DNA of 64,000 nt, taken from positions 101,795 through 165,794 of the forward strand of contig JAJYUH010000003.1 of assembly GCA_021792635.1 (NCBI GenBank). Direction: 5' to 3'. The notes beneath the pieces were generated by a model, which did no database searches, was not told the origin of the DNA, and saw only the letters and a list, made by a program, of their open reading frames with translations. Positions within the stretch are counted from its first letter, which is position 1; each line of letters begins with the position of its first letter. The stretch comes from Natronospirales bacterium (GTDB lineage: Bacteria > Pseudomonadota > Gammaproteobacteria > Natronospirales > REEB76). Positions 2,079 through 27,305 of this stretch are shown here, in pieces. The translations under genes and the position numbers were made by a program.

Positions 2079-2215
2079 AAATCACCTCCTGTCCGATGGA
2101 AAATCTACTCCATTATCAGAGCGGTGGCAGAAGGTGAACGGAATTTAATGCTGCGCTCATAATCACGGCTGCGGCACAGTTTGCTCTCGGATTAATGGTA
2201 TAGGTCCCCATTTGC

Positions 2216-3780: not shown

Positions 3781-4009
3781 TCCGTCTTGAGGAGCTGCGG
3801 GCACGTCTGCCTCCGGGTGTTGCCGCGAGGGCGGGTTTAAGGAACGTCCATGCACTGCGGGCAAGCGTAGCATGCCGAAAACTCCGCTGCGACGACAATT
3901 GCTTGCTGCGTGCGCCGCGACCCAGAAGGGGTGCCCCGGATCACACGGAGCGGGCGCAGGCGGGTGCGGATACTGCAACCGGATCTGAATCTTGAGAGGG
4001 CGACCGGCA

Positions 4010-10842: not shown

Positions 10843-12435
10843 TCAGCTCTGGGAAAAATACTGCCTGAGATATGCATCGAAGGAAAGCTTGTCTGTCGCC
10901 TCAATTTCTGCCTGCTGATCCAGGGATTCACGCGCCAAGCGCTCAAAATACTGCTGCGTGGCAGCCGGCAGGCGGCGCTTCAGGAAATAATCACGGTGGG
11001 TTTCCGAGAGGCGCTTGGCAAACTGGAAGAAGCTTTCATGGCGGGCACGCATGTCCGCCAGAATCCGTGCCGACGGCAGGCGTTCCGGTTCAGCAATGAC
11101 TTCGCGCTGGGCTTGCAGGGCGGTATGGTGGGGTTTACCCAGGTCCTCGCCGTCCAGAATTTCGCAGAGACCATCCATCTGCCCGGTGATTTCCCGCGCC
11201 CAGTCACGCAGCAGCAGGGTGCGGCCGTCGCGTTGCAATTGCAGTGCCGGGTCACGGCCGTGACGGGCGGTTTGCGTCTGGTTGTGATTGATGCATTGTT
11301 GCTCTTGGGGTGAAAGGGGTGGGCTGTCCTGCAGCAGGCAGAAGGCCAGCAATGTTTCAATGAAGTGCAATGCCGGCTGGTCCGCACCTACCGGGTCATA
11401 GGCATTTACATCCAGCGCGCGCACCTCGGCATACATGACGCCGCGTTTCTTGAGCGCAAGCGCGGCACGCTCGCTCTGATTGATGGGCTGCTTGGGACGG
11501 ATGTATGCGTAAAATTCATTTTCGATCTGCAGGATGTTGGCATTCAATTGCCGGTATTCTCCGTTTACCTTTACGCCGATGGCTTCGTATTCCGGCTCCG
11601 GCGTGCTGATGGCACGGGTGAGGGTGGTGACGTAATCATCAAGACTGTTGTAACTGACACCGATGCGCGCCTGGTTCTTGTTCTTGTAACCGATATCGCT
11701 CATGCGCAACGAGGTGGCATAGGGTTCGTACCAGGTGTGGGAATCGAATTCCCTGAAGCCCAGGTCGCGGCCGTGCAGAAAACTCTTGCACACCGCCGGT
11801 GAGGCGCCGAACAGGTAGGGCACAAGCCAGCTTATGCGCTGAAAATTGCGCAGCATGCCGAAATAGCACTCATCCACGAATTCCCGCAGCGGGCGGCGGT
11901 CCCGTTCCAGTTCCCGCAGCGCCGGCCAGAGCACTTCCGGAAATGAATAGTTGAAATGCACGCCGGAGATGGTCTGCATGGTACGACCGTAACGGTAACC
12001 CAGACCACGGCGGTACACGTGTTTCATCATGCCCACATTGGATTTGCCGTAGCGGGCGATGGGAATGTTCTCGTCACTCTCCAGCACACAGGGCATGCTG
12101 GTGGCCCACAGCATTTCGTCGTGCAGATGCGGATATACAAAGCTGTGGATATCGCACAGAAAACCGAGCGTGGCGTGTATATCTTCCAAAGGCGGTGTCA
12201 CCAGCTCGATCAAGGCCTCGGAATAATCCGTGGTGATGTGCGGGTGAGTCAGCGCGGCGCCGAGGGCATCAGGGTGGGGCGTCCGGGCGACGCAGGCTTG
12301 CGCATTCACCCGCAGGCTTTCCTTTTCCAGGCCCTTGCTGCCGCCGCGCAGCAGAGGCGCGGCGCGACTCGCCAGCAGGCGGCTCAGACGTTGGTCCAGC
12401 TGTTCGGCTGAAGGCATCAGGAATGTGTCCGGCAC
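10843..12435 (-). CDS. gshA: Glutamate--cysteine ligase
   Basis: 530 aa, colinear with E. coli GshA as recalled (GLEKESLRV, ALTHPHITTDYSEALIELVTP, MQTISGVHFNYSFP). Confidence 0.95.
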   Translation of the reverse strand: MPDTFLMPSAEQLDQRLSRLLASRAAPLLRGGSKGLEKESLRVNAQACVARTPHPDALGAALTHPHITTDYSEALIELVTPPLEDIHATLGFLCDIHSFVYPHLHDEMLWATSMPCVLESDENIPIARYGKSNVGMMKHVYRRGLGYRYGRTMQTISGVHFNYSFPEVLWPALRELERDRRPLREFVDECYFGMLRNFQRISWLVPYLFGASPAVCKSFLHGRDLGFREFDSHTWYEPYATSLRMSDIGYKNKNQARIGVSYNSLDDYVTTLTRAISTPEPEYEAIGVKVNGEYRQLNANILQIENEFYAYIRPKQPINQSERAALALKKRGVMYAEVRALDVNAYDPVGADQPALHFIETLLAFCLLQDSPPLSPQEQQCINHNQTQTARHGRDPALQLQRDGRTLLLRDWAREITGQMDGLCEILDGEDLGKPHHTALQAQREVIAEPERLPSARILADMRARHESFFQFAKRLSETHRDYFLKRRLPAATQQYFERLARESLDQQAEIEATDKLSFDAYLRQYFSQS

Positions 12436-12546
12436 GCGGGGCGGACATGGTGGCGTAAACCGGGGCGATGGCGCAAGCCTGCGGCGTGGGCGTTCAGATG
12501 CCGATTACTTTGAGTTATGGTCGCAGGCGGAATCCGTGTGCCGTGT

Positions 12547-12991
12547 ACGCAAACCGTCTGGTGAGTGCCGGCCGGATCAAACAGGGGTGGGGCGGGGTAT
12601 CAGTGTTCCCAGCAGGTGCTGGTGTTGAGGGCGCCGGCGGAATTGGTGGCGGTTCGATTGCCGGTGTTGTCGAGGCTGAAAGTGCGGCAGTCGGTATCAT
12701 TGAGCTGGGTCCCCACCGCCGTGACGGTCAGGGTGTAGATGTCGGTGGTGACAGCCGGGGGCTCGGTCAGGGTGTAGTACCCGAACTGGGTGCTGGCGGG
12801 CAGGGAGGCGGCGGAGGGCGAGCACTGGGCGCTGTTATAGCGGAAGTACTGGGTGTAGCAGCGTTCCAGGATCTGGGAATCCTGACTGAGGAGGGTTTCC
12901 GCGTCGGAGCGGTGGGATTTCAGCACCGAACGTTCATAGGAGGGGTAGGCGATGGCGGCGATGATGCCGATGATGGCCACCACGATCATGA
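12547..12991. repeat. 445-bp perfect direct repeat, copy 1 (pilE-1 body plus 53 nt of 3' flank)
   Basis: Base-for-base identical, by my reading, to 20042-20486 (offset 7,495 bp). Confidence 0.85.
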
Positions 12992-13046
12992 GCTCGATCA
13001 AAGAGAACCCCGAAACAGGCCGTCCGTTGGCCCCCGAACCCGTCAT
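12600..13046 (-). CDS. pilE: Type IV pilin, PilE-like, cassette 1
   Basis: Class III signal MTGSGANGRPVSG|FSLIELMIVVAIIGIIAAIAYPSY and a C-terminal Cys pair (DTDC...STCW). ATGA overlap with the upstream small ORF. Confidence 0.85.
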   Translation of the reverse strand: MTGSGANGRPVSGFSLIELMIVVAIIGIIAAIAYPSYERSVLKSHRSDAETLLSQDSQILERCYTQYFRYNSAQCSPSAASLPASTQFGYYTLTEPPAVTTDIYTLTVTAVGTQLNDTDCRTFSLDNTGNRTATNSAGALNTSTCWEH

Positions 13047-13384
13047 GGGTGCCCCCGCGGTTGAGGGGGAAGAGCCGGCAGCACGATAATTTTGGTAATT
13101 ACCGAGGAGGCTCTGTTCAGCGGGCCGTTCATGATGTATCTCACCCGCATGCCCGTTTGCAGGTTTTCAAAGCTCTTGGCACCCGTGACGAATACCTTGG
13201 GCGACAGGGGGTAGGTATGGCCGTTCACGGCGAGGGTGCGCGCGGCATAATTGATCATACCGATGGTGCCGGTACCCATGCGGTTTTCCGGGATGGCATA
13301 AGCCGCCAGCGTCGCCTGTTCCGGCAGCAGAACCATGAGCAGACCCGCCGCCGCAAACGTAACGAATGTGCGCAACTTCAACAT
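13043..13384 (-). CDS. Small secreted protein at the pilY2 position, paralog 1
   Basis: 113 aa with signal peptide MLKLRTFVTFAAAGLLMVLLPEQATLAA. Paralogs lie at 20714-21046 and 27754-28170, sharing G-T-[IV]..[ND]Y...[TI].[AT]V.G[HQ].Y...[SA]PK...GM.[VI]R[YF]. No family recognised. Confidence 0.7.
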   Translation of the reverse strand: MLKLRTFVTFAAAGLLMVLLPEQATLAAYAIPENRMGTGTIGMINYAARTLAVNGHTYPLSPKVFVTGAKSFENLQTGMRVRYIMNGPLNRASSVITKIIVLPALPPQPRGHP

Positions 13385-13402
13385 GTCCTGATCCTCCTGT
13401 TC

Positions 13403-16400
13403 TCATGGCCCCGGGGTGGCCAGGCTCGGCGAAATGTCCCGCCAGGATTGACGCTGATTCGAACCGGGCGCCTGACCCACGCTCTTGATTTGACCGTTGG
13501 ATTCCGAAATCAGCTTGACTGCCCCAACGTTGCCCAGGGAAGCGGAGATAATCGTGGGGGCGGCAGAATACACCTGACCCAGGTACATTCCCACGGGGTT
13601 CTGGCCGTTGACCTGGTCCGCGCTGTCCAGTTTGCCGTCACCATTCAAATCGAGTTCCGGAGCCGGGAATGAATTGCCGCTTGCAAAGTTTACCGCCATC
13701 AGCCAGGACTGACCGCCCGCCGCGCAATTGCTGGCACTGGGTACATAAGTGGTGAAGACCACCGCGCCGTTTTCGAGCCGCGGATTGGTGACTACCCGCT
13801 CGCCGGCGATGGACAGGTCCATGTACCACCCCAGTTTGCTGGTCCAGTCTATCGTCGTCGGGCCGCTTACGGTGCGTACCAAAGTACCGGCCGGGCCGGG
13901 CGTGGGCGCGGACAGCACCTGTTGCACCAGATTGCTGCGGGTGGCGACATAGGAAAGCCCCGGCTTGTCCCACACCCCATAGAAAGTCTGGGTACTGGTG
14001 GTGCTGAGGTCCGGCGCGCCCAGCAACTGGCCGGTGCCGAAATAAACGATGGTGCCCGTTTGCCCCGGAAAATTGGGATGCAGGGATACCGTGGGCGCCA
14101 CCGTAATGGGCTGCGGATTGCCGAGACTGTCCCGCGCCTGGAACAGCAACTGTACGCTCCAGTTGGCCGGGTTGGGATCGGAAATATTCACTTTCCACAG
14201 GTTGCCCTGCAGGTCGCCGGCATACACCGTATCGTCCGGCAATGACAGGGCACCGCCGCTGTTTACGGCCACCGGACTGGATAAACCATTGGGTAGGCTC
14301 GCGTTGCAGGGGTTGGGGGTGACAGACTGGCAAAGATTGATGCGTGCCAGCAGCGCACCGGTCTGGGCGTTTACCGCATACAGGTAGGGATTGCCGTCGC
14401 TGTTGTCGTAACCGGAACCGAAGAACACCACGAAATTGGAACCGGTGACATCGGTACGCGCAATAAACGGCTGGCTGTAGGTAAGTCCCAGGTAGGGGTC
14501 GGTGAATTCCCACAACACGCTGGATGCCAGCGCCGTTTCGCTGTTAATCACCGACGGATCGGTCACATCCAGGGCGTAGATGCTATTGCCGCCGGAATTG
14601 AGGCCGCCCACCAGGAGCGTGTGCCAACTGCCGTCACTGAATTCTACGTCGCCCGATGTCGGCGAACCGTCCACAAAGAACTGGTGGTGCTGGTTGTAAA
14701 GCGGATTGCTGAGATTGGCGAGATCGGCGAATACCCCGTCCGGAACATAGGCGAATTCCTCGTTACCGGTACTGGGGTTGAACGCATGCAGCATACCGTC
14801 ATTGGCGCCCACGTAAAGCACCGCCGGGCGGTTTTGCTGCGCCAGTTCAAAGCTGACGTAGGACGGGTCTTGGTAAGGTCCGTTGGGCGGGCCGACGAAC
14901 AGCGGGTTGCTGTCCACGATATCCCCCAAGATGTGGGAGCGGTTACGGAACGTACCCCCGTTGCGTTGTTCCAGTGAGGTATCGCCGCGCAGATAATTGA
15001 GGCGCTGCGATCCCAGGCCGTCGTTGGCGAGGCTCTGGGGGTTGGTGTTGAGATCCGTCTGCTGGACGCTGCTGAGGCTGCTCCACTCGAAGGGTACGCC
15101 GCTGGCACTGGATGGATTCCAGGTGGCGATGATGCGACTGGCGGGAGCTCGCAGGTCCAGTTGAGTCTGGGCCTTCCAGATCGGCGTGGTGGTATTGACC
15201 GTGCCGTTGGAGAGGATGGGGAAGGCCACCAGGTTGCCGGTCCAGTCGTTGTAGGGCATATCGGAGGAGGTGAACTGGGCTTGGTAGGCCACGGCTCCGG
15301 CCTTGAGTCCGGTGGAGTTCACCGCCGCGGAACTGGTGGACATGTTGGCCGCCTGGATGGCGCTCAGGATCACCTGCATATCCACGGTGACCTGAGCGGG
15401 GCTGGTGGCGGCGAAGTAGTTGCCGGTACCGCCCGCCATTGCCATGGCGGTCATGGTGGAGGCCGCCTGCGGATTGAGGCTCGGATTCACGCCGGCACCC
15501 ACGCCGATGATGTAGGTTTTGATGCCGGCGGTATTGAGTGCCGTCAATTCACTGATGGTGTCCGTGAGCGCCTGATCGTTGGTGGTATTGAGGGAGCCAT
15601 CACTGTTGAAACTGACCGTGACGCCGTAACCGCTGGCGGACTGGCTGCCCAGGGGTGGCCAGCTCTTGCCGCTCAGATCCTCGGTGGGCAGGCCGTCGGT
15701 GATCAGCACCACGTAACGCTGCGGTGCACAGCCGTTGCTGGAAGGCGGATTAGTCTTGAAATAGGCGAGCGCATTTTTCAGCAGACCGGCCATGGGTGAC
15801 TGTACCGCCAGCGCCTTGATTTCACCGCTGCCGGTATCGTTGGTCTCGGGTTCCAGATAGGGGGTGAATTTGCCGATGACTGTCTGGATTTGAGCGGGTG
15901 TCGGATTGGTGCCGGCCGATTGCATGGGCAACAACAAGTCGCCGCCGGTGGCGCTTTGCGATGTGTAATAGCCGAAGCCCCGCTCGATGTACATGGTCTG
16001 GTCCTGGTACGGCACGAACCCGGCATTGGTGGGCCCGGTAGTGGTTGCGCAGGAGTTGATTTGGCTGGCGTAGGTGACGGTGATATTGCCGTTGTTGTAA
16101 TTCGTCAGTGAATAATTTGGAGGGAATGGCGTAGACGGGCTGCGGTTGCCATACACCAGACATACCGGCGCAAGACCGCCGGCATACAACACGTCGTTGA
16201 CGGAGGGATCGTCGCTGGAATTCTGCACCAGCATATAGGGCATGGTGAGCAGTTGCGAACCCAGCAGTGCTTGCATGTTGTTGCAGTCGTTATAGACGCT
16301 ATTGCCGCTGGAAATGTTGTAACAGGGGTTGTTGATGTATTCCCCCGCCGGTGGGGCAGGAGTGTTGCTGGCCGAGAAGGTGAAACCGCCGGGATTGCTC

Positions 16401-16939
16401 ATCACATACAGCCAGGTGGTGTAAAGACTCGGAGCGCCGGTTGCATAGGTCAGCAGGCCGAAATCCGTATTGCCGACATAGGTCTGGAGGATGGCCTGGA
16501 TTGCGCTCTTGGCCACGTTCAGGCGGCTGGCGGAGTTGTCACAGAGGTCGCTGGTATTCTGCGGGGCCACGCATGGCACGGTGTAGGGCTGGGAACTGCC
16601 CGCCGTTCCCCCGCTCACGGGCGGCGTGAACCCGCTGGGCACGGTGAAATCCACCGGTGAACCGGAAGCGTTGAGTTGGGAGGGAATGCTGCTGCTACCG
16701 CTTCCGGTCATGATGGCACCGGACAAATCACCATCCATGGATTGGGAGTTGGGGAGCGCCAGCAGCACCTGTGGATGGGCCGGCAACACCAGCGTCAATG
16801 GAATATTGGAGATGGATACCATCGGCACAGGTGCGGGCGCAGCGGTGGCGAGGTTGCCGACGCTGGCGGTGAAGGCAGCCGCCAACAGCACGATGCCAGA
16901 TTTCTGCAGGATGTATTTGAGAGTATGTGGTCTGCTCAT
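13403..16939 (-). CDS. pilY1: PilY1 (PilC-like) type IV pilus tip adhesin / biogenesis factor, cassette 1
   Basis: 1178 aa with a signal peptide. vWA-like middle region (YVVLITDGLPT...TYIIGVGAG). C-terminal PilY1 motifs: HILGDIVDSNPLFVGPP, LYVGANDGMLHAF, FFVDGSPTSGDV and LLVGGLNSGGNSIYALDVTDP. EF-hand-like DLNGDGKLD. Confidence 0.9.
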   Translation of the reverse strand: MSRPHTLKYILQKSGIVLLAAAFTASVGNLATAAPAPVPMVSISNIPLTLVLPAHPQVLLALPNSQSMDGDLSGAIMTGSGSSSIPSQLNASGSPVDFTVPSGFTPPVSGGTAGSSQPYTVPCVAPQNTSDLCDNSASRLNVAKSAIQAILQTYVGNTDFGLLTYATGAPSLYTTWLYVMSNPGGFTFSASNTPAPPAGEYINNPCYNISSGNSVYNDCNNMQALLGSQLLTMPYMLVQNSSDDPSVNDVLYAGGLAPVCLVYGNRSPSTPFPPNYSLTNYNNGNITVTYASQINSCATTTGPTNAGFVPYQDQTMYIERGFGYYTSQSATGGDLLLPMQSAGTNPTPAQIQTVIGKFTPYLEPETNDTGSGEIKALAVQSPMAGLLKNALAYFKTNPPSSNGCAPQRYVVLITDGLPTEDLSGKSWPPLGSQSASGYGVTVSFNSDGSLNTTNDQALTDTISELTALNTAGIKTYIIGVGAGVNPSLNPQAASTMTAMAMAGGTGNYFAATSPAQVTVDMQVILSAIQAANMSTSSAAVNSTGLKAGAVAYQAQFTSSDMPYNDWTGNLVAFPILSNGTVNTTTPIWKAQTQLDLRAPASRIIATWNPSSASGVPFEWSSLSSVQQTDLNTNPQSLANDGLGSQRLNYLRGDTSLEQRNGGTFRNRSHILGDIVDSNPLFVGPPNGPYQDPSYVSFELAQQNRPAVLYVGANDGMLHAFNPSTGNEEFAYVPDGVFADLANLSNPLYNQHHQFFVDGSPTSGDVEFSDGSWHTLLVGGLNSGGNSIYALDVTDPSVINSETALASSVLWEFTDPYLGLTYSQPFIARTDVTGSNFVVFFGSGYDNSDGNPYLYAVNAQTGALLARINLCQSVTPNPCNASLPNGLSSPVAVNSGGALSLPDDTVYAGDLQGNLWKVNISDPNPANWSVQLLFQARDSLGNPQPITVAPTVSLHPNFPGQTGTIVYFGTGQLLGAPDLSTTSTQTFYGVWDKPGLSYVATRSNLVQQVLSAPTPGPAGTLVRTVSGPTTIDWTSKLGWYMDLSIAGERVVTNPRLENGAVVFTTYVPSASNCAAGGQSWLMAVNFASGNSFPAPELDLNGDGKLDSADQVNGQNPVGMYLGQVYSAAPTIISASLGNVGAVKLISESNGQIKSVGQAPGSNQRQSWRDISPSLATPGP

Positions 16940-16997
16940 GTGCTTACTTCGCCCCGTGTGTCCGCGAAAGCATGCGTAGCGTTACTGCTGAGGAGAT

Positions 16998-17567
16998 TCA
17001 TTGGGTTACCACCGTCTGCAGGACCACGTGACTGGTCCGGTCGCCGCCGGTGGCATACACCGTGATACGGTAGGGCTGGACCGGCGGTGCGCCGGCGCCG
17101 CTTTGCTGTTGTGCCAGATTGCTTCCCGGCGGCGCCACCGGCGGCAGTTCCTCAACAATGAATATCGGTTGCTGAGCGAGTTGGCCCGGAATGGTGAGGC
17201 CGGGAACCGGTGTGGTGATAGGCAGCGCGCTGCTCCACACGTTCGGCAGGGTCCAGGCGGAAGTCCAGGGAGTTCCTGCGCAGCAGTTGGAGAGCAGATA
17301 AAGACCACTGGCATTCCCGGCGAAATCCGCATTGCTCCAGAGCCCCTGACGAATACCGCTCCGGGCCGCGGCCAGGCCGGCCTCGGCCGCCTGGAACGCC
17401 AGCTCGTGGTTGCGTCCATTACCGGCCATGCGTTCTTCCAGCAAGCTGCTTTGGGCCGCTGCCAGACCGAGAATGGTAAGCAGCAACAACAGTATCAGCG
17501 CCATGATCAGCACGAAACCGCATTGTGGGCGACCGGGTAAACCTGACAATACTTGCTGCCGGATCAT
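16998..17567 (-). CDS. pilX: PilX minor pilin, cassette 1
   Basis: 189 aa; GFVLIMALILLLLLTILGLAAAQSSLLEERMAGN matches the PilX N-terminal pattern. Confidence 0.8.
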   Translation of the reverse strand: MIRQQVLSGLPGRPQCGFVLIMALILLLLLTILGLAAAQSSLLEERMAGNGRNHELAFQAAEAGLAAARSGIRQGLWSNADFAGNASGLYLLSNCCAGTPWTSAWTLPNVWSSALPITTPVPGLTIPGQLAQQPIFIVEELPPVAPPGSNLAQQQSGAGAPPVQPYRITVYATGGDRTSHVVLQTVVTQ

Positions 17568-17581
17568 GACTGTGTCCTCAT

Positions 17582-18733
17582 TTATTGCAGGCGGTTGCGG
17601 ATAGCGATGGTCGCGGTAAATATCCGCCGCAGCCGCGTGTCCCTCGGCACGGTGATGCTGGTGCCGAGCAGGTTGTAAACGGGTGCCGTAGCCGGCAGCA
17701 GCATGGCGCCCTCATCACTGCGCACCAGGAGCGCGATGCGTACGCTTACCACATTGCTCCAGTCACCGGCCGCCGCCACGGCTGCTGCGGTCTCGTATTC
17801 GCTGGGTATCCGGGTGCCGGTGAGGTCCACTCCATACAGTACCTGCATGTTTTCCACCCCGGGTACCAGTTCCTCGTAGGAGAAGCCGTTGGCCTGGGTG
17901 GTGTCGGTGACCGCCTCGAACAAGGCGGGGGAACCGTCGGTTCCCTGACCAATGAAGAAGACAATCGTTGTGGGCGCCAGCATCACCTGGGCACCCGTGA
18001 AATCGGCAGGCAGGCCCTGTATCGCATTGCCGGGCGAACCGCTGCCCGTGTTATGCACCACATTCGTGCCACCGCCGTTAACCTGGGTGGCCTGCATCAC
18101 TACCGTACTCAGGCAGTTGGTAATCGCCATCAGGTCTCCGGTCTGAATACCTCCGTTCATATTGATCTGGAAATCCGCAGAAGGACTGCCCGGTGAAACG
18201 CTGCCAGGGATGGAGGTGATATAGACCGGGTCACCGCCCCGGCTGAAGCGCACTACCAGTACGTCGGTGCCGGGTATCGCCCGGTTCTGCAGGCTGCTGT
18301 CCAGCGCGGGCGACCAGTCGCCGGTGTTGGTGTCGGGGCCGGGGTTTTCCGCAGGGGAGGCCGGCGCCGCCGGGTAGATGTCACCGGGTGCGGTGCCGGT
18401 AAACTCGTAACCTGTGAGCGCGACGGTGAAATCGTAGGGCAGATTGGAGCCGGATAGCGGATTGAGGTAATTGACCACCTGGGTGCTGGTGGCGCAGCCC
18501 ATATAACCCGCCATGCGTGTGTCATTGTGGATGAAATCCAGGGCGAAACGACCGTTTTCCTGTACGCGTGCGACGGCCGTGTTGACGCTGTAACCCTGAC
18601 GGCTGGAAATGAAAATGGACAACACACCGGCGATCAGGATCAGGCCCACCACCAGTGCGATCATGAGTTCGATCAGTGACAGACCGGTTTGCCGCAGCCT
18701 GAGATGAATTTGGTTACCGCACATGGGGGCCAT
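17582..18733 (-). CDS. pilW: PilW minor pilin, cassette 1
   Basis: 383 aa; leader ...RLRQTG|LSLIELMIALVVGLILIAG, then QENGRFALDFI. Confidence 0.85.
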   Translation of the reverse strand: MAPMCGNQIHLRLRQTGLSLIELMIALVVGLILIAGVLSIFISSRQGYSVNTAVARVQENGRFALDFIHNDTRMAGYMGCATSTQVVNYLNPLSGSNLPYDFTVALTGYEFTGTAPGDIYPAAPASPAENPGPDTNTGDWSPALDSSLQNRAIPGTDVLVVRFSRGGDPVYITSIPGSVSPGSPSADFQINMNGGIQTGDLMAITNCLSTVVMQATQVNGGGTNVVHNTGSGSPGNAIQGLPADFTGAQVMLAPTTIVFFIGQGTDGSPALFEAVTDTTQANGFSYEELVPGVENMQVLYGVDLTGTRIPSEYETAAAVAAAGDWSNVVSVRIALLVRSDEGAMLLPATAPVYNLLGTSITVPRDTRLRRIFTATIAIRNRLQ

Positions 18734-18735
18734 TA

Positions 18736-19314
18736 CTACAGCGCGGAACTGACGCTCATGCTGAAAGTGGCGGCTGGGGGTGCGCCGCTTTTCTGCAGGC
18801 TGTCTTGAGCACGGCTGTCATTCCACAGCACCGTGATGGTGACTAGGGTGACGCCGCTGTTGTCGGTGGAGGTTACGGCGCCCCGGCCCTGGGGCAGCAA
18901 TGTCGCCAAGTCATATTCCCACTGGCCCAGGTCATAAGCTGCCAATGTCGCCGAACCGCAGGTAGCGCCGGTGCAGTTGGTGGGGTTGCCGCCGGTGGCG
19001 GCGGAGGCGGGCATGGCGACGTCATACATACCATTCTCCGCCGCAGTGCGATTGGCGCGCATGCGGTCAATAATGTTGTATGCCAGGGCCGTGGCCTGGG
19101 TGCGCATGTAGGCGCTGTCGTTGCTCTTGAGGGTGGTGCTGATCATGGCGGCGATGCCCAGCAGTCCCACCGACAGGATCACCAGCGCGATCAATACCTC
19201 CAGCAGGCTGAAACCGGCCAGCCGGAAGCAGGACGGCAATCCATTTCTCCCGGCGGAAGCGTGATGCGGGGCGCGGGGGTATTCAGCAAATGTTTTGGGC
19301 ATGGTGGCCAGCAT
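18736..19314 (-). CDS. pilV: PilV minor pilin, cassette 1
   Basis: 192 aa; ...FRLAG|FSLLEVLIALVILSVGLLGIAAM...MRTQATALAYNIIDRMRAN. Confidence 0.85.
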   Translation of the reverse strand: MLATMPKTFAEYPRAPHHASAGRNGLPSCFRLAGFSLLEVLIALVILSVGLLGIAAMISTTLKSNDSAYMRTQATALAYNIIDRMRANRTAAENGMYDVAMPASAATGGNPTNCTGATCGSATLAAYDLGQWEYDLATLLPQGRGAVTSTDNSGVTLVTITVLWNDSRAQDSLQKSGAPPAATFSMSVSSAL

Positions 19315-19316
19315 TT

Positions 19317-19853
19317 CTAGGGGCAGGTAAGCGGCGTGCTGCCGTCAAGCCCGTAACCCACCGTAGTTGCGGCTTCTGCCAGACCGGTGGCGGACAAGCT
19401 GATGGCACGTGCATAGGTGGCGCCCCTGGAGTCGCAGAGTGTGAAGGTGACGGGTCCCAGGGGTGTGGGCGTCAGCATGCCGTTGGCCTGAAATGTGAAG
19501 CGGTAACTGTTATTGCTGGTGAAGGTGGTGTTGCCGCTGATGGCCGGGAATACCTGGATGATCGAGGTGGCGGCACCGGGAGGCAGGGTGTTGTAGTAGA
19601 CAATCCAGCCACTGGCCCAGGTGCTGCCGCCGCACGTGGTGTTGCTGCCGGCGCAAATGCTCACATCGGTACCGGTCTTGATGGCCTCGCTGCGGGCCAG
19701 TGTCAAGCCCGTGAGCAGACTGTTGACCCGGGAAAGGTCCCGGTCATTCCTGATGGTGGCGCTGAAATCCGGGATGGCGACCGTTGTCAGAATGGCAACC
19801 ACCGCCACCAGGATCAGCAGCTCAATAAGGGTGAAGCCGTCTTGGCGCTTCAT
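19317..19853 (-). CDS. fimU: FimU/FimT-like (GspH-domain) minor pilin, cassette 1
   Basis: ORF-track start 19904 trimmed to MKRQDG|FTLIELLILVAVVAILTTVAIP. Contains ARSEAIKTGTDVSIC...WASGWIVYY. Confidence 0.8.
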   Translation of the reverse strand: MKRQDGFTLIELLILVAVVAILTTVAIPDFSATIRNDRDLSRVNSLLTGLTLARSEAIKTGTDVSICAGSNTTCGGSTWASGWIVYYNTLPPGAATSIIQVFPAISGNTTFTSNNSYRFTFQANGMLTPTPLGPVTFTLCDSRGATYARAISLSATGLAEAATTVGYGLDGSTPLTCP

Positions 19854-20094
19854 TGCACTTCGCTCAAAAATAATTTGCATACGAAGAATATATGCGGTGG
19901 GCAATAAAAATGAGGGGTAATGGCGATAAGTGCGCAGAAATTCCCGATGAATGGTGGTCAGGAAGGCAAACCATATTTATTATTTTACATATTATTTATG
20001 ACAATCAGCCTTGCTGACAGGAGCTGCACGCAGCCGGCGGCACGCAAACCGTCTGGTGAGTGCCGGCCGGATCAAACAGGGGTGGGGCGGGGTA
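19854..20094 (-). promoter_or_regulatory. AT-rich intergenic region upstream of cassette 1 (likely promoter region)
   Basis: This is the only clearly AT-rich stretch in the block (ccatatttattattttacatattatttatgacaat at ~19970-20005). It lies between the pilE-2 stop and the fimU-1 start. No convincing -35/-10 or sigma-54 box could be fixed by eye. Confidence 0.3.
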
Positions 20095-20486
20095 TCAGTG
20101 TTCCCAGCAGGTGCTGGTGTTGAGGGCGCCGGCGGAATTGGTGGCGGTTCGATTGCCGGTGTTGTCGAGGCTGAAAGTGCGGCAGTCGGTATCATTGAGC
20201 TGGGTCCCCACCGCCGTGACGGTCAGGGTGTAGATGTCGGTGGTGACAGCCGGGGGCTCGGTCAGGGTGTAGTACCCGAACTGGGTGCTGGCGGGCAGGG
20301 AGGCGGCGGAGGGCGAGCACTGGGCGCTGTTATAGCGGAAGTACTGGGTGTAGCAGCGTTCCAGGATCTGGGAATCCTGACTGAGGAGGGTTTCCGCGTC
20401 GGAGCGGTGGGATTTCAGCACCGAACGTTCATAGGAGGGGTAGGCGATGGCGGCGATGATGCCGATGATGGCCACCACGATCATGA
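20042..20486. repeat. 445-bp perfect direct repeat, copy 2 (pilE-2 body plus 3' flank)
   Basis: Identical to 12547-12991. Confidence 0.85.
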
Positions 20487-20625
20487 ACTCGATCAGCGAG
20501 AAACCACATGCGTCCGGCCAGACAATTTTATGCGGTAGCAGACAGAACACCACGGGGTTGTCCGTGGATAAATGAGCCTGGCGGTAGTATTTACCATCAC
20601 CGGATCCTGAATCCTGGCGTTTCAC
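20095..20625 (-). CDS. pilE: PilE-like pilin, cassette 2, with a non-canonical 5' end (possibly a silent copy)
   Basis: The mature part FSLIEFMIVV...STCWEH is identical to pilE-1 except L6F. Upstream of Gly(-1) there is no short basic leader. The only in-frame start is GTG 20623-20625, 42 codons upstream and inside the hairpin repeat element. Confidence 0.55.
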   Translation of the reverse strand: MKRQDSGSGDGKYYRQAHLSTDNPVVFCLLPHKIVWPDACGFSLIEFMIVVAIIGIIAAIAYPSYERSVLKSHRSDAETLLSQDSQILERCYTQYFRYNSAQCSPSAASLPASTQFGYYTLTEPPAVTTDIYTLTVTAVGTQLNDTDCRTFSLDNTGNRTATNSAGALNTSTCWEH

Positions 20626-20702
20626 CGGGATTCAATTCGGTTCCAGTTGGAGCGGTAGCGGAAGGACCCCGGCTTTAGCCGGGGAATCTCTCCACTCATG
20701 AT
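20527..20702. repeat. Multi-hairpin repeat element, copy B (~175 bp)
   Basis: Colinear with 348-534 (ttatgcggt.gcagacagaa ... aatgagcc ... tcctgaatcctgg ... ggaccccggctttagccgggg ... cactcat). It fills exactly the gap between the small ORF-2 stop (20714) and the mature-pilin codons of pilE-2. Confidence 0.7.
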
Positions 20703-20713
20703 TGCGCTACATC

Positions 20714-21046
20714 TCAGTTTGGTTTGGGGGGAAGCACCACGATATTGAGGATGCGCGAAGCGGGAGCGGTCACCGGACCGTTTGCTATAAACCTGATTTT
20801 CATTCCTGGCTGCAGGGCGCCTATGTCTTTCACGCCCCCGGCGCCGATATAGGAGGCCTTGGGTGCAATCTTATACACATGACCGGCGACGGTGACGGTA
20901 CGGGTAGCGTAATTGACGAATTGGATGGTGCCGTTGCCCATGTTCTCAGAAGGAACAGGATAGCTCGCCAGTGCTGTTTGGCATACGCACAAGCCCATGC
21001 ACAGGGCGAGCCTCGGCCATAAGCCGGATTTCGGTAGCTTCGACAT
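20714..21046 (-). CDS. Small secreted protein at the pilY2 position, paralog 2
   Basis: 110 aa; signal peptide ...LALCMGLCVCQTALAS; same conserved core as 13043-13384. Confidence 0.7.
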   Translation of the reverse strand: MSKLPKSGLWPRLALCMGLCVCQTALASYPVPSENMGNGTIQFVNYATRTVTVAGHVYKIAPKASYIGAGGVKDIGALQPGMKIRFIANGPVTAPASRILNIVVLPPKPN

Positions 21047-21089
21047 ATCTCAAACCTCCTCGCTGACGTTCCTACTGGTTTTCCAGAGC

Positions 21090-24000
21090 CTAGTTTGGTA
21101 TTTCCCGCCAGGACTGGCGCTGTTTCGGACCACCGGCTTCGCCCACGCGCTGGATTTGGCCGCTGGACTGGGAGATCAGCTTGACGGCATGGACGCTGCC
21201 GAGGCTCGCAGAAATGATGGTGGGTGAAGCGGAGTACACCTGGCCGAGGTACAGGCCCACGGGGTTTTGCCCGCTCACCTGGTCTCCGGAGTTCAGCATG
21301 CCGTCGCCGTTCAGATCCAGCTGCGGATTTGGGAACGAGCCGCCGTTCTTGTAGTTTACCACCAGCAGCCAGGACTGGCCGCCTACCGCGCAACTGCTGG
21401 CTGACGGCACATAGGTAGTGAACACCACCACGCCGTTCTCAAGACGCGGGTCGGTGACCACTCGCTCGCCCGAGATGGACAGATCCTCATACCAGCCCAG
21501 TTTGCTGGTCCAGTCTATGGGTGCATTGGTCACCAATCGCACCGTGGTTCCCGCCGGACCGGCGGTGGGTGCGGACAGCACCTGTTGCACCAAGTTGCTG
21601 CGGGTCGCGACATAAGACAGCCCCGGCTTGTCCCACACCGCATAGAAAGTCTGGGTATTGGTGTTGGTGAGGTCCGGCGTGCCCAGCAGTTGGCCGGTAC
21701 CGAAGTACACGATGGTGCCGGTATCCCGCGGAAAATTGGGGTGCAGGGAAACCGTGGGCGCCACCGTGATGGGCTGCGGTGTTCCCCCCGATGCCTGACA
21801 AGTCTGACCTGCCGGCGGAGCCGGGATGCACGCCTGGAACAGCAGTTGCACTGTCCAGAGGGCGGGATTGGGATCGGAGATGTTCACTTTCCACAGGTTA
21901 CCCTGCAGATCGCCGGCATACACGGTATCGTCAGGCAATGTCAGTGCACCGGTGCTGTTCACCGCCACCGGACTCGACAGTCCGTTGGGCAGGCTGGTAT
22001 TGCAGGCACCCGCCGGAACGCCGGGGGCCGCGCACAGGTTGATGCGTGCCAGCAGCGCGCCCGTCTGGGCATTGACGGCGTACAGATAGGGATTACCGTC
22101 GCTGTTGTTGTAGCCGGAACCGAAGAACACCACGAAGTCGGAGCCGGTCACATTGGTGCGCGCAATAACGGGCTGGCTGTAAGTCAGCCCCAGGTAGGGA
22201 TCGGTGAATTCCCACAACACGTCGGAAGCCAGGGCGGATTCACTGGTGATGTTCAGTGGATTGGTGACATCCAGGGCGTAAATGCTGTTGCCACCGGCAT
22301 TCAGACCGCCCACCACGAGCGTATGCCAACTGCTGTCGGAGAACTGCACATCGCCCGCCGTGGGCGAGCCGTCCACGAAGAACTGATGGCGCTGGTTGTA
22401 GAGCGGATTGGTGAGATTCACCAGGTTCGCGAACACCCCATTGGGAATGAAGGCGAATTTCTCATTGCCGGTCGTGGGATCGATGGCGTGCAGCATGCCG
22501 TCATCGGCACCGACGTAAAGCATGGCCGGACGGTTCTGCTGTGCCAGCTCGAAACTCACGTAGGATGTATCCTGGAAGGGTTCATTGGGCGGCCCCACGT
22601 ACAGCGGGTTGCTGTCCACGATGTCCCCGAGAATGTGCGAGCGGTTGCGGAACGGCCCACCGTTTTGCTGGTCATTGGACGGATCACCGCGCAGGTAATT
22701 CACCACATTTTGTATCTGGGTATCCGTGGAGCCGAGTTCCTGACCGAGGGTGGTGCTGGCGGTGATACCTGAGCCGGCACCCCAGCGGAATGGTACGCCC
22801 TTGTCCAGTACCGGATTCCAAGTGGCGATAATCCGACCGGTATCCCAGCCCGATCCCGCCGCCTGGACATCGAGCTGTGCCTGCGTCTTCCATAATGGGG
22901 TGGTGGTGTTCACCGTCCCACTGGACAGGATGGGATAAGCCACCAGGTTGCCGGTCCAATCCTGCCAAGGCTGGTCGGCGGAGGTGAACTGAGCCTGATA
23001 GGCCACTGCACCCGCCTTGAGGCCGGTGGAATTCACCGCCGCCGAGCTGACGGACATGTTCGCCGCCTGGATGGCGGAGAGAATCGCCTGCATGTCCACC
23101 ACCACATCGTTCGGGCTGGTGGCGGCGAAATAATTGCCTGTGCCACCTGCATAGGCCATGGCCTTCATGGTAGCCGCCGCCTGCGGGTTCAAAGCGGGGT
23201 TCACGCCGGCACCCACGCCGATGATGTAGGTTTTGATGCCGGCGGTATTGAGTGCCGTCAATTCATTGATGGTGTCCGTGAGCGCCTGATCGTTGGTGGA
23301 TGTAAGCTTCCCGGTAGTGGGATCAAAGCTGGCGGTCACGCCGTAACCGGCGGCCGACGCACTGCCCAGCGGCGGCCAGTTGTTACCTGCCAGATCCATG
23401 GTGGGCAGGCCGTCGGTGATGAGCACGGCGTAGCGCTGCGGCGGGCAGCCGTTATTCGAGGGTGGATTCGTGCCGTAGTAACTCACGGCTTTTTTGATCA
23501 GGCCCGCGATGGGCGACTGGTAGGCCAAGGCCTTGATTTCGCCCGTGCCGGGGTTGTTGGTTTCGGGTTGCAGATAAGGCGTGAAGGTGGCGATGTAGGC
23601 ATTGATCTGTGCCGGTGTGGCATTGGTGCCCGCTGTGCTGATGGGTACCAGCATGTTGCCGCTGTTGCTGCTGAGACCGGTGACGTAGTAGCCGAAGCCG
23701 CGCTCGGCGTAATACACTTGATCGGAATACGGCACGAAACCGGCGTTGGTGGGGCCGACGGCCGCAATACAGCCGCCGGGCGTGCAACTCGAGTAACCGA
23801 CCGTAACACTACCCGATTCATAGTTCGCAAGAGAGTAGTAGGGTGGGTATGGCGTGGGGGGATTGTGGCTGCCATAGTCGAGGAAGACCGACGGCTGACC
23901 GCCCGCATACAATACGTCGTTGACGGTGGGGTCATCACTGCTGTTCTGCACCAGCATGTAAGGCTGTGTGAATACCTGGGAGCCTAACTGCCCCTTGATA

Positions 24001-24626
24001 GAGGTGCATTCGCTATACAGCGTTCCGGACGTAATGCCATAACAGGGGTTATTCACATACTCCGCCGGCGCTGCGGGCGGTACGCTGGCGAAAGTGAACC
24101 CTCCGGGATTGCTCATCCAATACACCCAGGTGGTGTAGAGGCTCGCACCGCCGGTGGAGTAGTCCATGAGGCCGAAGTCGGTATTGCCGGCATAAATCTG
24201 CAGAATGGCCTGGAGTGCCTGCTTGGCTACGTTGAGGCGGCTGGCGGAATTATCACAAAGATTGCTGCCGCAGCTCGCGGTGTAAGGCTGTGACGACCCC
24301 GCGGCGCCGCCGGTGATGGGCGGCGTGAAGCCGGTGGGCACGGTAAAGTCCAGCGGTGAGCTGGAATTCGCCAGTTGCGCGCCCAGCGTGCCGGAGCCGG
24401 TCATGATGGCGCCGGAGAGATCACCGTCCACCGACTGGGAGTTGGCAACCATTAGAAGCACTTGCGGATGGGCGGGCGATACCAGGGTTAGCGGAATGTT
24501 GGAAATGGATACCATGGGTGGCGCAGCCGCCGCGGCGATACTGCAGATTCCCACGGTCAGCAACGCCGCCAACGCCGCAAAAATGACTTTACCCAGGATG
24601 TTTCTCATTGCATATTGCCTGTTCAT
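21090..24626 (-). CDS. pilY1: PilY1 tip adhesin, cassette 2
   Basis: Start trimmed to MNRQYAMRNILGK (ATG 24624-24626), giving 1178 aa. Same vWA-like and PilY1 C-terminal motifs as cassette 1; the EF-hand-like loop reads DLNGDGMLN. Confidence 0.9.
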   Translation of the reverse strand: MNRQYAMRNILGKVIFAALAALLTVGICSIAAAAAPPMVSISNIPLTLVSPAHPQVLLMVANSQSVDGDLSGAIMTGSGTLGAQLANSSSPLDFTVPTGFTPPITGGAAGSSQPYTASCGSNLCDNSASRLNVAKQALQAILQIYAGNTDFGLMDYSTGGASLYTTWVYWMSNPGGFTFASVPPAAPAEYVNNPCYGITSGTLYSECTSIKGQLGSQVFTQPYMLVQNSSDDPTVNDVLYAGGQPSVFLDYGSHNPPTPYPPYYSLANYESGSVTVGYSSCTPGGCIAAVGPTNAGFVPYSDQVYYAERGFGYYVTGLSSNSGNMLVPISTAGTNATPAQINAYIATFTPYLQPETNNPGTGEIKALAYQSPIAGLIKKAVSYYGTNPPSNNGCPPQRYAVLITDGLPTMDLAGNNWPPLGSASAAGYGVTASFDPTTGKLTSTNDQALTDTINELTALNTAGIKTYIIGVGAGVNPALNPQAAATMKAMAYAGGTGNYFAATSPNDVVVDMQAILSAIQAANMSVSSAAVNSTGLKAGAVAYQAQFTSADQPWQDWTGNLVAYPILSSGTVNTTTPLWKTQAQLDVQAAGSGWDTGRIIATWNPVLDKGVPFRWGAGSGITASTTLGQELGSTDTQIQNVVNYLRGDPSNDQQNGGPFRNRSHILGDIVDSNPLYVGPPNEPFQDTSYVSFELAQQNRPAMLYVGADDGMLHAIDPTTGNEKFAFIPNGVFANLVNLTNPLYNQRHQFFVDGSPTAGDVQFSDSSWHTLVVGGLNAGGNSIYALDVTNPLNITSESALASDVLWEFTDPYLGLTYSQPVIARTNVTGSDFVVFFGSGYNNSDGNPYLYAVNAQTGALLARINLCAAPGVPAGACNTSLPNGLSSPVAVNSTGALTLPDDTVYAGDLQGNLWKVNISDPNPALWTVQLLFQACIPAPPAGQTCQASGGTPQPITVAPTVSLHPNFPRDTGTIVYFGTGQLLGTPDLTNTNTQTFYAVWDKPGLSYVATRSNLVQQVLSAPTAGPAGTTVRLVTNAPIDWTSKLGWYEDLSISGERVVTDPRLENGVVVFTTYVPSASSCAVGGQSWLLVVNYKNGGSFPNPQLDLNGDGMLNSGDQVSGQNPVGLYLGQVYSASPTIISASLGSVHAVKLISQSSGQIQRVGEAGGPKQRQSWREIPN

Positions 24627-24710
24627 TGGATTACCTCGTGCGGTGCATCCGCGGGGCAACCCCCGGAAGTCCCGGCAGTGGGATGATCTCGGGCATTGCT
24701 TCTAAACAGC

Positions 24711-25289
24711 TCATTGTGTCACCACGGCTTGCAGCGTCACGTGGGTGGTGCCGTCGCCGCCCACGGCATACGCCGTGATGCGATAGGGTTGCGATGGCGG
24801 CGCACCGTTGTTGTAGCCGGTTTGCCCACCCAGGTTTGAGCCCGGCGGCGCCACCGGCGGCAGTTCCTCGATGATGAATACCGGCTGTTGTGAAACACCG
24901 GCGATATTCAAACCCGGTACCGCGGTATCGGCGGGAAGTGCGCTGCTCCACACCCCGTGCAGAGTCCAGGCGGAAGTCCAGGAGGGAGCCGGACCCGATG
25001 CGCAGCAGGTAGCAAGCATATACAGACCGTTGCCATTGCCGGCGTAGTTTGCGTTGCTCCACAGTCCCTGCAAGATGGCGCTCTGGGCCGCATACAGGCC
25101 GGCCTCGGCGGATTGGAAGGCCAGATCATGATTGCGCGCGTTGCCGGCCATTCTTTCCTCCAGCACGGTAGTCTGGGTCGCGGCCAGACCGAGCAGGGTG
25201 AGTACCAGCAACAGGATCAGGGCGACAATCAGCACGAAGCCGCCATCCCGGCGTGCGGCATCATGGATGCGGTGAAATTTGTGGTGCAT
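24711..25289 (-). CDS. pilX: PilX minor pilin, cassette 2
   Basis: 192 aa; GFVLIVALILLLVLTLLGLAATQTTVLEERMAGN. Confidence 0.8.
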   Translation of the reverse strand: MHHKFHRIHDAARRDGGFVLIVALILLLVLTLLGLAATQTTVLEERMAGNARNHDLAFQSAEAGLYAAQSAILQGLWSNANYAGNGNGLYMLATCCASGPAPSWTSAWTLHGVWSSALPADTAVPGLNIAGVSQQPVFIIEELPPVAPPGSNLGGQTGYNNGAPPSQPYRITAYAVGGDGTTHVTLQAVVTQ

Positions 25290-25301
25290 ATCTATATACC
25301 T

Positions 25302-26459
25302 TCAGCTTGTAGGCAACGGTGCATTGCGCAGATAGATGGTAGCCGTAAATACGCGGCGCAGCCGTGTGTCAATCGGCACCTGGACATAGGTACCGAGAAG
25401 ATTGAACACAGGTGCGGCAGCCGGCCGCGGTACCGCGCCGGTATTGCTGCGCAGCAACAGACCCACCTGCACGCTCAACACATTGGCCCAGTCATTGCCC
25501 GCATCCACCTGCGCCGCAGTCAGATACTGGTTCGGTGACAGCAGGGAGCCGCCGGTACTGTCCACTCCATACAGCACCTGCAGATTTTCCACCCCCGGCA
25601 CCAGTTCCTGCGGTGCTCCCAAGCCGACACCCGGCTGATAGGCAACCTTATAAAGGGCCGGTGAATGGTCCACGCCCAGACCGATGTAATAGGCCATGAC
25701 ATTGGCAGTGAGTACCTGTGCGCCGGATTGGAACCCTATATTGAAACTGGTCAGGGCATTGCCGGGGGGCGGCACACCGGCGCCGACGGTGATAGTGCCG
25801 GGGGCTCCTGCAGTGACGGCGCTTATCTGGAATACCGTGCTTTCGAGACAATCGGTGATCACCGCCAACTGCCCGGTCTGGAAACCCGTGGTAGCGTTCA
25901 CCTGAATCACACCACCGGTTACCGGTGCGATGGCATAGGCGGGATCGCCGCTCGCGGTGTAAAGCATCAATACATCACTGCCGGGAATGGGGCTGCCGGG
26001 ACCACCACCGGGGAGGTTGATGGTGGCATCCGGTGTGGGGGACCAGTTCCCGCCGCCGATAGCGACGGGGGTGGGGTTTTCCTGGGTGATCACATAGGGC
26101 GCTAATGAGGTGGCGGTTGCCGAATTGGTGCCGTTGTATTCAAATCCATATACCGGCATTAGGAAGTTATACGCCTGTCCGGCGGGGTTGAGGACGGTGT
26201 CGGTGCGCGCGGCGGTGGTGCAGCCCATGTAACTGGTCATGCGCGAGTCGTTGCGGATGAAATCCAGGGCGAAACGGCCGTTTTCCTGTAACTGGGCGAT
26301 GGCATTATTAGTGCTGTAACCCATGCGGCTGGAGATAAAGATGGAGATCACACCGGCCAGCAGGATCAGGCCTACCACCAGCGCCACCATGACCTCTATC
26401 AGCGATAAACCTGCCTGACGGGAGGTGGCGTATGCTCCATTTGCACACATTGCATTCAT
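25302..26459 (-). CDS. pilW: PilW minor pilin, cassette 2
   Basis: 385 aa; ...TSRQAG|LSLIEVMVALVVGLILLAG...QENGRFALDFI. Confidence 0.85.
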   Translation of the reverse strand: MNAMCANGAYATSRQAGLSLIEVMVALVVGLILLAGVISIFISSRMGYSTNNAIAQLQENGRFALDFIRNDSRMTSYMGCTTAARTDTVLNPAGQAYNFLMPVYGFEYNGTNSATATSLAPYVITQENPTPVAIGGGNWSPTPDATINLPGGGPGSPIPGSDVLMLYTASGDPAYAIAPVTGGVIQVNATTGFQTGQLAVITDCLESTVFQISAVTAGAPGTITVGAGVPPPGNALTSFNIGFQSGAQVLTANVMAYYIGLGVDHSPALYKVAYQPGVGLGAPQELVPGVENLQVLYGVDSTGGSLLSPNQYLTAAQVDAGNDWANVLSVQVGLLLRSNTGAVPRPAAAPVFNLLGTYVQVPIDTRLRRVFTATIYLRNAPLPTS

Positions 26460-26461
26460 TC

Positions 26462-26992
26462 CTATAACGCTGAGCTGACGGCCAGACTGAAGGTAGTCGG
26501 CGCCGGCGGTGCAACCGTGCTTTTCAGGCTGTTCTGGGCGCGGCTGTCATTCCATTGGATGGTGACGGTCACCATGGTGAGGCCGCCCACCGTGTTGGTG
26601 ACGATCCCGCCGTCGCCATCCGGCAAACCGTTTGCCGACGACGCCAGCGTTTGTTTCCATTGGGCCAAGTCATAGCCCGCCAGTTGCGCGGAACTGCAGT
26701 TCGCACTCGGGCCAGTGCAAACGTTGGTGGAACCGGACGCCGGAGTACCGATGGCAATGTCGTAATTGCCGTTCTGGGCGGCGTTCGGGTTGGCACGCAT
26801 GCGGTCAATGATGTTATAGGCAAGCGCCGTGGCCTGGGTGCGCATGTAGGCGCTGTCGTTGCTCTTGACGGTGGTGCCGATCATGGCGGCGATACCCAAA
26901 AGGCCCACCGACAGGATTACCAGCGCAATCAATACTTCCAGCAGACTGAAACCACCGAACCGGCTGCGATATGGCATATTGATTGTGTACAT
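26462..26992 (-). CDS. pilV: PilV minor pilin, cassette 2
   Basis: Start trimmed to MYTINMPYRSRFGG|FSLLEVLIALVILSVG (the ORF track starts at 27082). Confidence 0.8.
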   Translation of the reverse strand: MYTINMPYRSRFGGFSLLEVLIALVILSVGLLGIAAMIGTTVKSNDSAYMRTQATALAYNIIDRMRANPNAAQNGNYDIAIGTPASGSTNVCTGPSANCSSAQLAGYDLAQWKQTLASSANGLPDGDGGIVTNTVGGLTMVTVTIQWNDSRAQNSLKSTVAPPAPTTFSLAVSSAL

Positions 26993-27305
26993 GGGTGCGG
27001 TTACCTGGAAAAAACGGGCGCCGGGTGGGCATCTGTCGGCATCGTTGGAATCGGGCGCCGCCGCGCGCACAAGAGCCGCCACCTGCAGTACGGCGGTTCA
27101 GTCGGAGTTGAGAAACTGTCAGCTTGTTTCATGTATTAACAATACAATAAGCACGGGATTCCACAGTGGCCGGTGCGATAAGCGTTCAGGAATTGGTGAT
27201 GGGCGGCAAGTGACCACGGCCTAGCCCGATACGAATTTTGCGTGCCACGTATGCAAAGACCGTTCGGTGAGTGCCGGCCGGCTAGATAAAGGTACAGGGC
27301 GGGTA

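Follow-up and report, generated by a model that had tools for sequence, protein, structure and literature searches.

Duplicated genes such as tufA/tufB and the rRNA operons are homogenised by RecA-dependent gene conversion, in tracts with discrete ends. The pilE/pilS system of Neisseria draws on silent, truncated copies and requires a G4 element; its target is the major pilin and its outcome diversification. Pseudomonas aeruginosa has one minor pilin operon of the fimU-pilVWXY1Y2E type per genome. Within its products, PilVWXY1 has been proposed to form a priming and tip subcomplex, with FimU and PilE linking it to the major pilin, and the core minor pilins diverge strongly, with 61-75% similarity between PA14 and PAO1 (PMC5979040). 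The assembly of type IV pili is primed by minor pilins and PilY1, which are located at the tip and mediate adhesion (PMC7541494, PMC5979040). Myxococcus xanthus has several sets of minor pilins plus PilY1, cluster_1 to cluster_3, thought to be suited to different conditions (PMC7541494, PMC8833165, PMC9109919). Gene conversion among paralogues and the presence of multiple minor-pilin sets are, each on its own, already known (PMC7541494, PMC8833165). In the literature we searched, no report was found, for the M. xanthus sets, of a homogenised gene common to them or of a copy number that changes through repeats, and no joint description of tandem complete minor-pilin operons, homogenisation of pilE only and a cassette number mediated by pilE.

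The window, by which we mean the whole stretch of 64,000 nucleotides analysed here, carries on its minus strand three tandem type IV pilus cassettes of the form (fimU)-pilV-pilW-pilX-pilY1-pilY2-pilE, as established from the ORF listing, translation and Pfam (Table 1; the cassette order is that of the assembly). The original prediction had described cassettes 1 and 2, both of which are present, and the array extends to a third. The Pfam match of PilY2 lies below the cut-off (20.1 against 25 bits). The PilY1 and PilX proteins of cassette 1 are nearest those of cassette 2, and its PilW and PilV nearest those of cassette 3; since the genes of a single cassette follow differing histories, the cassettes are old and themselves recombinant.

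Table 1. Coordinates of the features of the pilin array in the window, with the basis of each assignment.
Feature	Position	Strand	Description	Basis
gshA	10843..12435	-	glutamate-cysteine ligase; right-hand border of the array	conserved in all relatives
Repeat copy 1	12547..12991	-	pilE1 from codon +6 onwards, its stop codon and the next 53 nt	direct string comparison
Decayed intrinsic terminator	12547..12599	-	CCGGCCGGC-ACTC-ACCAGACGG-TTTG, downstream of pilE1	comparison with M2, M3 and L083
pilE1	12600..13046	-	minor pilin, 148 aa, leader MTGSGANGRPVSG	Pfam N_methyl and ComP_DUS above cut-off
Cassette 1 body	13043..19904	-	pilY2-1 to fimU1, the segment between the repeats	Pfam, ORFs; missing from L093
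pilY2-1	13043-13384	-	cassette 1	
pilY1-1	13403-16939	-	cassette 1	
pilX1	16998-17567	-	cassette 1	
pilW1	17582-18733	-	cassette 1	
pilV1	18736-19314	-	cassette 1	
fimU1	19317-19904	-	cassette 1; GspH family	
AT-rich spacer	19905..20041	-	pilE2 to fimU1	one promoter-like match, 20020-19991
Repeat copy 2	20042..20486	-	the same 445 bp, within pilE2 and its 3′ flank	direct string comparison
pilE2	20095..20553	-	152 aa from a GTG start, leader VFCLLPHKIVWPDACG	translation; P0130 in the protein collection
Cassette 2 body	20714..27082	-	pilY2-2, pilY1-2, pilX2, pilW2, pilV2; without fimU	ORFs, translation
pilE3	27306..27725	-	139 aa, leader MQLNKTRG	mosaic copy
Cassette 3 body	27754..35289	-	type a, long PilY1; pilY2-3, pilY1-3, pilX3, pilW3, pilV3, fimU3	Pfam, translation, tree
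aidB-like	35361..37025	+	acyl-CoA dehydrogenase; left-hand border of the array	conserved

Gene order and Pfam place pilE last in a fimU-pilV-pilW-pilX-pilY1-pilY2-pilE operon. All three copies encode a class III prepilin signal, G↓FSLIE(L/F)MIVVAIIGIIAAIAYP, with a leader that ends in Gly, Phe at +1, Glu at +5 and a hydrophobic N-terminal helix. PilE matches Pfam N_methyl with 35.8 bits (cut-off 21.2) and PF16732, ComP_DUS, with 67.5 bits (cut-off 27.3) over the full length of the profile (1-87), and its homologues are annotated by their sources as 'type IV pilus assembly protein PilE'. By these features, PilE is a PilE-family type IV minor pilin, not a major pilin.

It had been proposed that positions 12547-12991 and 20042-20486 are the same base for base, and that this stretch takes in 53 nt past the pilE stop codon and the coding sequence up to about residue +6. 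Direct string comparison bears this out: the two segments, 7,495 bp apart, agree over 445 bp with no scattered mismatches, although this perfect identity may be slightly overstated, as merging or polishing by the assembler could hide a few real differences between the copies. The exact run cannot be extended by one base, given the mismatches at 12546/20041 and 12992/20487. Read on the minus strand, the pilE1 stop codon occupies 12600-12602, which leaves 12547-12599 as the 53 nt of 3′ flank, and the first difference between pilE1 and pilE2 falls in codon +6, CTC (Leu) in pilE1 and TTC (Phe) in pilE2; mature PilE2 equals mature PilE1 apart from this Leu6Phe change. To the left of the repeat there is no homology at the same offset, and to the right 19 bases of partial identity lead to the Gly(-1) codon, upstream of which the pilE1 and pilE2 sequences are unrelated.

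The identity is confined to pilE. The second-longest exact match between cassettes 1 and 2 measures only 66 nt, and a chance origin of the 445-bp identity is excluded (0.74^445, or about 1e-58, by our own arithmetic from the identity of the pilY1 pair). As the original prediction had stated, the other paralogue pairs of the two cassettes differ at many positions: their nucleotide identity is 53-74% and their dS 1.0-1.8, the closest pair being pilY1-1/pilY1-2 with 73.7% nucleotide identity. Codon alignments across all three cassettes gave dS values of 0.8-2.3 for every pair of pilV, pilW, pilX, pilY1, pilY2 and fimU paralogues, against a dS of 0 for the mature part of pilE1/pilE2, where the identity includes the synonymous sites as well as the 53 nt of non-coding 3′ flank. 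This contrast, together with the same pattern in four other genomes (see below), upholds the view that recombination acted on pilE specifically and that there was no recent duplication of a whole cassette.

The third copy, pilE3, shares two exact blocks with pilE1, one of 157 nt (12844-13000 = 27538-27694), which spans the N-terminal helix and beyond, and one of 56 nt near the 3′ end (12643-12698 = 27352-27407); between them, the centre of the gene is diverged. The leaders vary among cassettes and genomes, from 8 to 19 residues, and homology always begins at Gly(-1)/Phe(+1). In cassette 1 the start of pilE1 overlaps the stop codon of pilY2-1 (ATGA). The 5′ end of pilE2 had been called odd, and it does differ from that of pilE1, but it reads as a cassette-specific leader: the 17-residue leader recurs with one change in a relative (P0132/L093). 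Since this leader is conserved in a relative and the 152-aa product is present in the protein collection as P0130, the 5′ end of pilE2 is probably no defect. We also considered that pilE2 might be a pseudogene or a silent cassette; this is disfavoured by the in-frame GTG, by a leader length inside the 8-19 residue range, by its retention in L093 and by the product P0130. About 160 nt separate the stop codon of pilY2-2 (20714) from the GTG at which pilE2 starts (20553), and about 208 nt separate it from Gly(-1); the corresponding genes of cassette 1 overlap. Within the spacer between pilY2-2 and pilE2, window 20626-20713 contains a GC-rich hairpin, CCCCGGCT-AAA-GCCGGGG.

At the other end of the repeat, the 53-nt flank can be compared with the sequence that follows pilE in relatives. 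In M2, M3 (both described below) and L083 a clean GC hairpin with a T run lies directly after pilE at the homologous position; in the window copies the left arm, CCGGCCGGC, is kept and the right arm is mutated. The same element is found at 20042-20094, and a diverged version of it after pilE3. On this comparison, the flank within the repeat is a decayed terminator, which forms the end of the operon unit and marks the 3′ limit of the repeat. The AT-rich spacer between pilE2 and fimU1 is conserved 3′ of pilE in relatives wherever a fimU-led cassette comes next. Promoter and terminator scans of the window gave counts at or below those expected by chance, and the promoter-like match at 20020-19991 is no better than chance. 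Rfam, searched over the whole window, returned only a tRNA, at 45318-45405 on the minus strand.

Two features recall the programmed variation of Neisseria pilE/pilS, a dedicated, high-frequency and directional conversion from silent donors into an expressed locus: the pilin genes are mosaics in which the 5′ and 3′ blocks are conserved and the centre varies, and a conserved element lies just 3′ of each copy. Here, however, every copy is complete, with a start codon and a leader, and stands at the end of an operon, and none is a promoterless, 5′-truncated gene; the 3′ element is the terminator remnant; the gene encodes a PilE-family minor pilin rather than the major pilin; and the copies have been made alike, not diversified. 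Moreover, none of the pilE copies contains or adjoins a four-tract G4 motif (G3+ x4); the closest such motif is at 12264-12287, inside gshA. We therefore give a programmed system of this kind a negligible probability.

To place the repeat in a wider context, a PilE profile search was run on the contigs of species-representative genomes, and returned only distant relatives, at no more than 44% identity; close relatives of PilE were taken from a large protein collection and their contigs compared. In all relatives the array sits between aidB and gshA, or adjoins whichever of the two borders the contig reaches. M1 (GCA_049698775.1; L087/L088) has three cassettes in the layout of the window, the first with fimU, the second without and the third with it; M2 (ERZ25039501 contig_43207; L089/L090), M3 (GCA_054637755.1; L091) and GCA_021816765.1 (JAKAXB010000002.1, hereafter JAKAXB; L095/L096), which has about 91.5% nucleotide identity to the window, have two each; and GCA_027440995.1 (L094) has one. 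The expectation, raised with the original description of the repeat, that cassettes could be lost or amplified agrees with this variation in array size among relatives, from one to three cassettes, each junction having a pilE gene.

In the PilY1 tree a long type a and a short type c separate across all genomes with 100% bootstrap support, and thus the duplication predates these lineages. Cassette 1 of the window is itself a mosaic with respect to these types, fimU, pilX, pilY1 and pilY2 being nearest type-c and pilV and pilW nearest type-a cassettes; the same mosaic is found in JAKAXB at about 92% identity, and is therefore an established cassette type. The PilE tree groups by genome, with bootstrap values of 96% for the window clade, 100% for M1 and 81% for M2. 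In M1, M2 and M3 the dS between pilE paralogues is 0.26-0.48, against 0.8-2 for the neighbouring genes, and long exact runs (62-188 nt) are found in pilE only. Within genomes, the first 159 nt of mature pilE differ at 0-3 positions in the window, 0 in JAKAXB, 0 in M2, 1 in M3 and 8-15 in M1; between the window/JAKAXB group, M1, M2, M3 and L092, the same 159 nt differ at 19-38 positions, mostly synonymous. Constraint at the protein level thus cannot explain the identity within genomes, and purifying selection or codon bias was ruled out as its cause on the same count.

JAKAXB provides an independent case. In this genome a perfect direct repeat of its own, with 549-bp copies 7,466 bp apart (L096 9965-10513 and 17431-17979), spans the whole of pilE, with the leader, and a further 81 nt on the 3′ side. 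The repeat flanks the orthologue of cassette 1, and its pilE allele is a different, pilE3-like one. Between the window and JAKAXB, the genes of cassette 1 and gshA are 89-96% identical, but pilE only 83%. Taken together, the trees, the dS contrast, the counts in the N-terminal block and the JAKAXB repeat indicate that pilE follows its genome, not its cassette.

Several further observations were made on these contigs. At the first position of the array (window 27754-35289 versus L096 2525-10004), fimU is 94% and pilE 92% identical, and pilV, pilW, pilX, pilY1 and pilY2 are only 64-79% identical, far under the genome background of about 91.5%; the variable core appears to have been replaced between conserved fimU and pilE ends. 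L083, L084 and L085, from different assemblies, have an identical PilE protein (P0003) behind two cassette types, and all three end at the same point, 147 nt into the next fimU, which suggests a longer repeat, made up of pilE, the spacer and the 5′ end of fimU, in that strain. In L092, a relative from a JGI metagenome, a 65-aa pilE remnant is followed by a gene for a GGDEF-domain protein, which is inserted between two cassettes (1221-3067).

As direct repeats, the two pilE copies had been predicted to make cassette 1 deletable, the deletion fusing the 5′ end of pilE2 to the 3′ flank of pilE1. A 25.5-kb metagenome contig, L093 (ERZ27233573), is collinear with the window except that exactly 7,495 bp, with cassette 1, are missing: L093 1-7532 corresponds to window 27555-20042 (97.6% identity) and L093 7072-16620 to window 13007-3460 (98.3% identity), and the two matches overlap inside pilE, where a pilE2-type leader is joined to the 3′ flank of pilE1 and gshA. 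The predicted junction is thus present in a relative, although the L093 form could equally be the ancestral state rather than the product of a deletion. The pilE of L093 has a pilE3-type patch at its 3′ end, the trace of a further conversion. The flanking DNA of the window and of L093 differs by about 2%, so that some nine differing sites would be expected over two independent 445-bp copies; none is seen (Poisson probability near 1e-4), which suggests that the event that made pilE1 and pilE2 alike is younger than the split between the window and L093, a conspecific strain.

Comparison of the same contigs drew attention to a 241-bp segment of the window (3219-3459) that is missing from L093, L094 and L097. 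It lies between the ORFs 2216-3217 and 3214-4059 (minus strand), which jointly match one MFS/sugar transporter that is intact (448 aa) in relatives, and looks like an insertion that splits the transporter gene. The segment occurs only once in the window and matches nothing in Rfam.

Other junctions have been recovered as well. L082 (971 bp, 97.7% identical) reads pilY2-1 - pilE - fimU1-upstream, a junction that a tandem duplication or an excised circle would have. It may instead stem from a different order of cassettes, as in L084/L085, where a cassette of the cassette-1 type is likewise followed by one that starts with fimU. In cassette content and order, the forms [a][C1]-gshA (JAKAXB), [..][C2]-gshA (L093) and [a]-gshA (L094) are those that an array like that of the window would be expected to yield if its three pilE copies recombined in pairs; among these forms the junction was examined in L093, and the direction of each change is one that we infer.

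Could the repeat be a product of assembly, with one consensus pilE threaded twice, or cassette 1 misplaced, so that the order in the window is absent from any single genome? An exact repeat of 445 bp exceeds the k-mers of short-read assembly, and the order in the window on the one hand, and the pair L093 plus L082 on the other, can be read as two resolutions of one repeat graph; L093 and L082 do correspond to alternative paths of that graph, but the samples they were taken from differ, and L093 shows SNPs and a mosaic pattern of its own. Against an artefact, the cassette-specific leaders and flanks of the two copies are each found in relatives, M1 has a three-cassette array of the same layout, and JAKAXB has the analogous 549-bp perfect repeat with another allele. 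L081, an independent assembly, stops on the very last base of the repeat, at its 3′ end, which is where an assembly graph is expected to branch at a real repeat. Because assemblies made independently show the pattern with other alleles and other repeat ends, we hold a pure artefact to be very unlikely. Breaks at pilE repeats are seen in several short-read assemblies (L081, L099 and L083-L085), so that counts of such cassettes from metagenome-assembled genomes are likely to be too low.

The identity might also be the by-product of one recent structural event, in which a crossover in pilE brought cassette 1 into a two-cassette array like that of L093, or shifted it inside such an array, whether through Campbell-type integration of a circle, unequal sister exchange or a double crossover of transformed DNA flanked by pilE. 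L093 shows an array without cassette 1, cassette-1-type cassettes with pilE on both sides are found in relatives (L084/L085, L096 and L098), and the L082 junction fits a circle or a tandem copy. However, such an event leaves the two copies as reciprocal hybrids, identical only if the donor and recipient pilE already matched over the 445 bp, and this account would thus itself need prior homogenisation. Moreover, homogenisation of pilE only is seen in M2 and M3, which are stable two-cassette genomes, and pilE3 shares exact blocks with the other copies though it does not flank cassette 1. We consider it an improbable origin of the identity, even though conversion and the by-product of a crossover that inserts or rearranges a cassette cannot be told apart from sequence alone.

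The reading we favour, and regard as likely, is that homologous recombination, in the form of gene conversion or concerted evolution, has acted repeatedly on the pilE copies and keeps them uniform as their neighbours diverge, and that the same repeats serve as points of crossover between cassettes. The genes between the pilE copies (pilV, pilW, pilX, pilY1, pilY2 and fimU) would evolve as old, divergent alleles. Homology runs from Gly-1/Phe+1 to the terminator, leaving the leaders and flanks cassette-specific, and the 445-bp perfect repeat would be the trace of the latest recombination event between pilE1 and pilE2. Non-reciprocal outcomes, or gene conversion, would homogenise pilE, and reciprocal outcomes between direct repeats would delete or add cassettes; the pilE repeats would in this way act as crossover points for the loss, gain and exchange of whole cassettes, giving arrays of one to three. 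The identity, the dS contrast, their recurrence in other genomes and the indel polymorphism with its breakpoints in pilE are observed; that the recombination is of the RecA type, in which direction each event went and why selection might favour it are what we infer. A selective reason for a uniform pilE is plausible, but the rationale is weak, since FimU, the other proposed connector to PilA, has not been homogenised (fimU1/fimU3 dS 0.94).

If pilE is indeed kept uniform by recombination, diverging tip cassettes that end in the same last gene suggest that one pilus machine, with one major pilin, could serve several tips, and the uniform pilE would double as a breakpoint for the loss and gain of cassettes. 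Two predictions follow, that PilE acts as an interchangeable adaptor and that cassette number varies within populations. A bolder proposal, to which we attach some but rather little credence, is that pilE and the 5′ end of fimU are maintained as conserved sites for recombination on either side of a hypervariable PilVWXY1Y2 adhesin core, such that populations swap, lose and stack tip cassettes at a useful frequency; the result would be a RecA-driven, modular repertoire of tips, all attached to one major pilin by way of a shared PilE.

The array can be compared with several described systems. With the fimU-pilVWXY1Y2E operon of P. aeruginosa it shares the gene families, their order and the position of pilE as the last gene; it differs in having two or three complete operons in tandem, of which only pilE is homogenised, and in a cassette 2 without fimU. 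The sets of M. xanthus have been described as three separate clusters, whereas here the cassettes form one head-to-tail array. As in Neisseria pilE/pilS, recombination among pilin copies yields mosaics and a conserved element lies 3′ of the copies; unlike in that system, the copies are complete, no G4 motif was found within or beside them, the gene is that of a minor pilin and the outcome is homogenisation. With tufA/tufB and the rRNA operons it has in common that paralogues are near-identical at synonymous sites, orthologues differ and the tracts have discrete ends. Unlike in tufA/tufB, however, it is the terminal gene of a repeated operon that is homogenised, the other genes of the operon being left to differ, and the repeats are direct and close, and would therefore also drive the loss and gain of cassettes.
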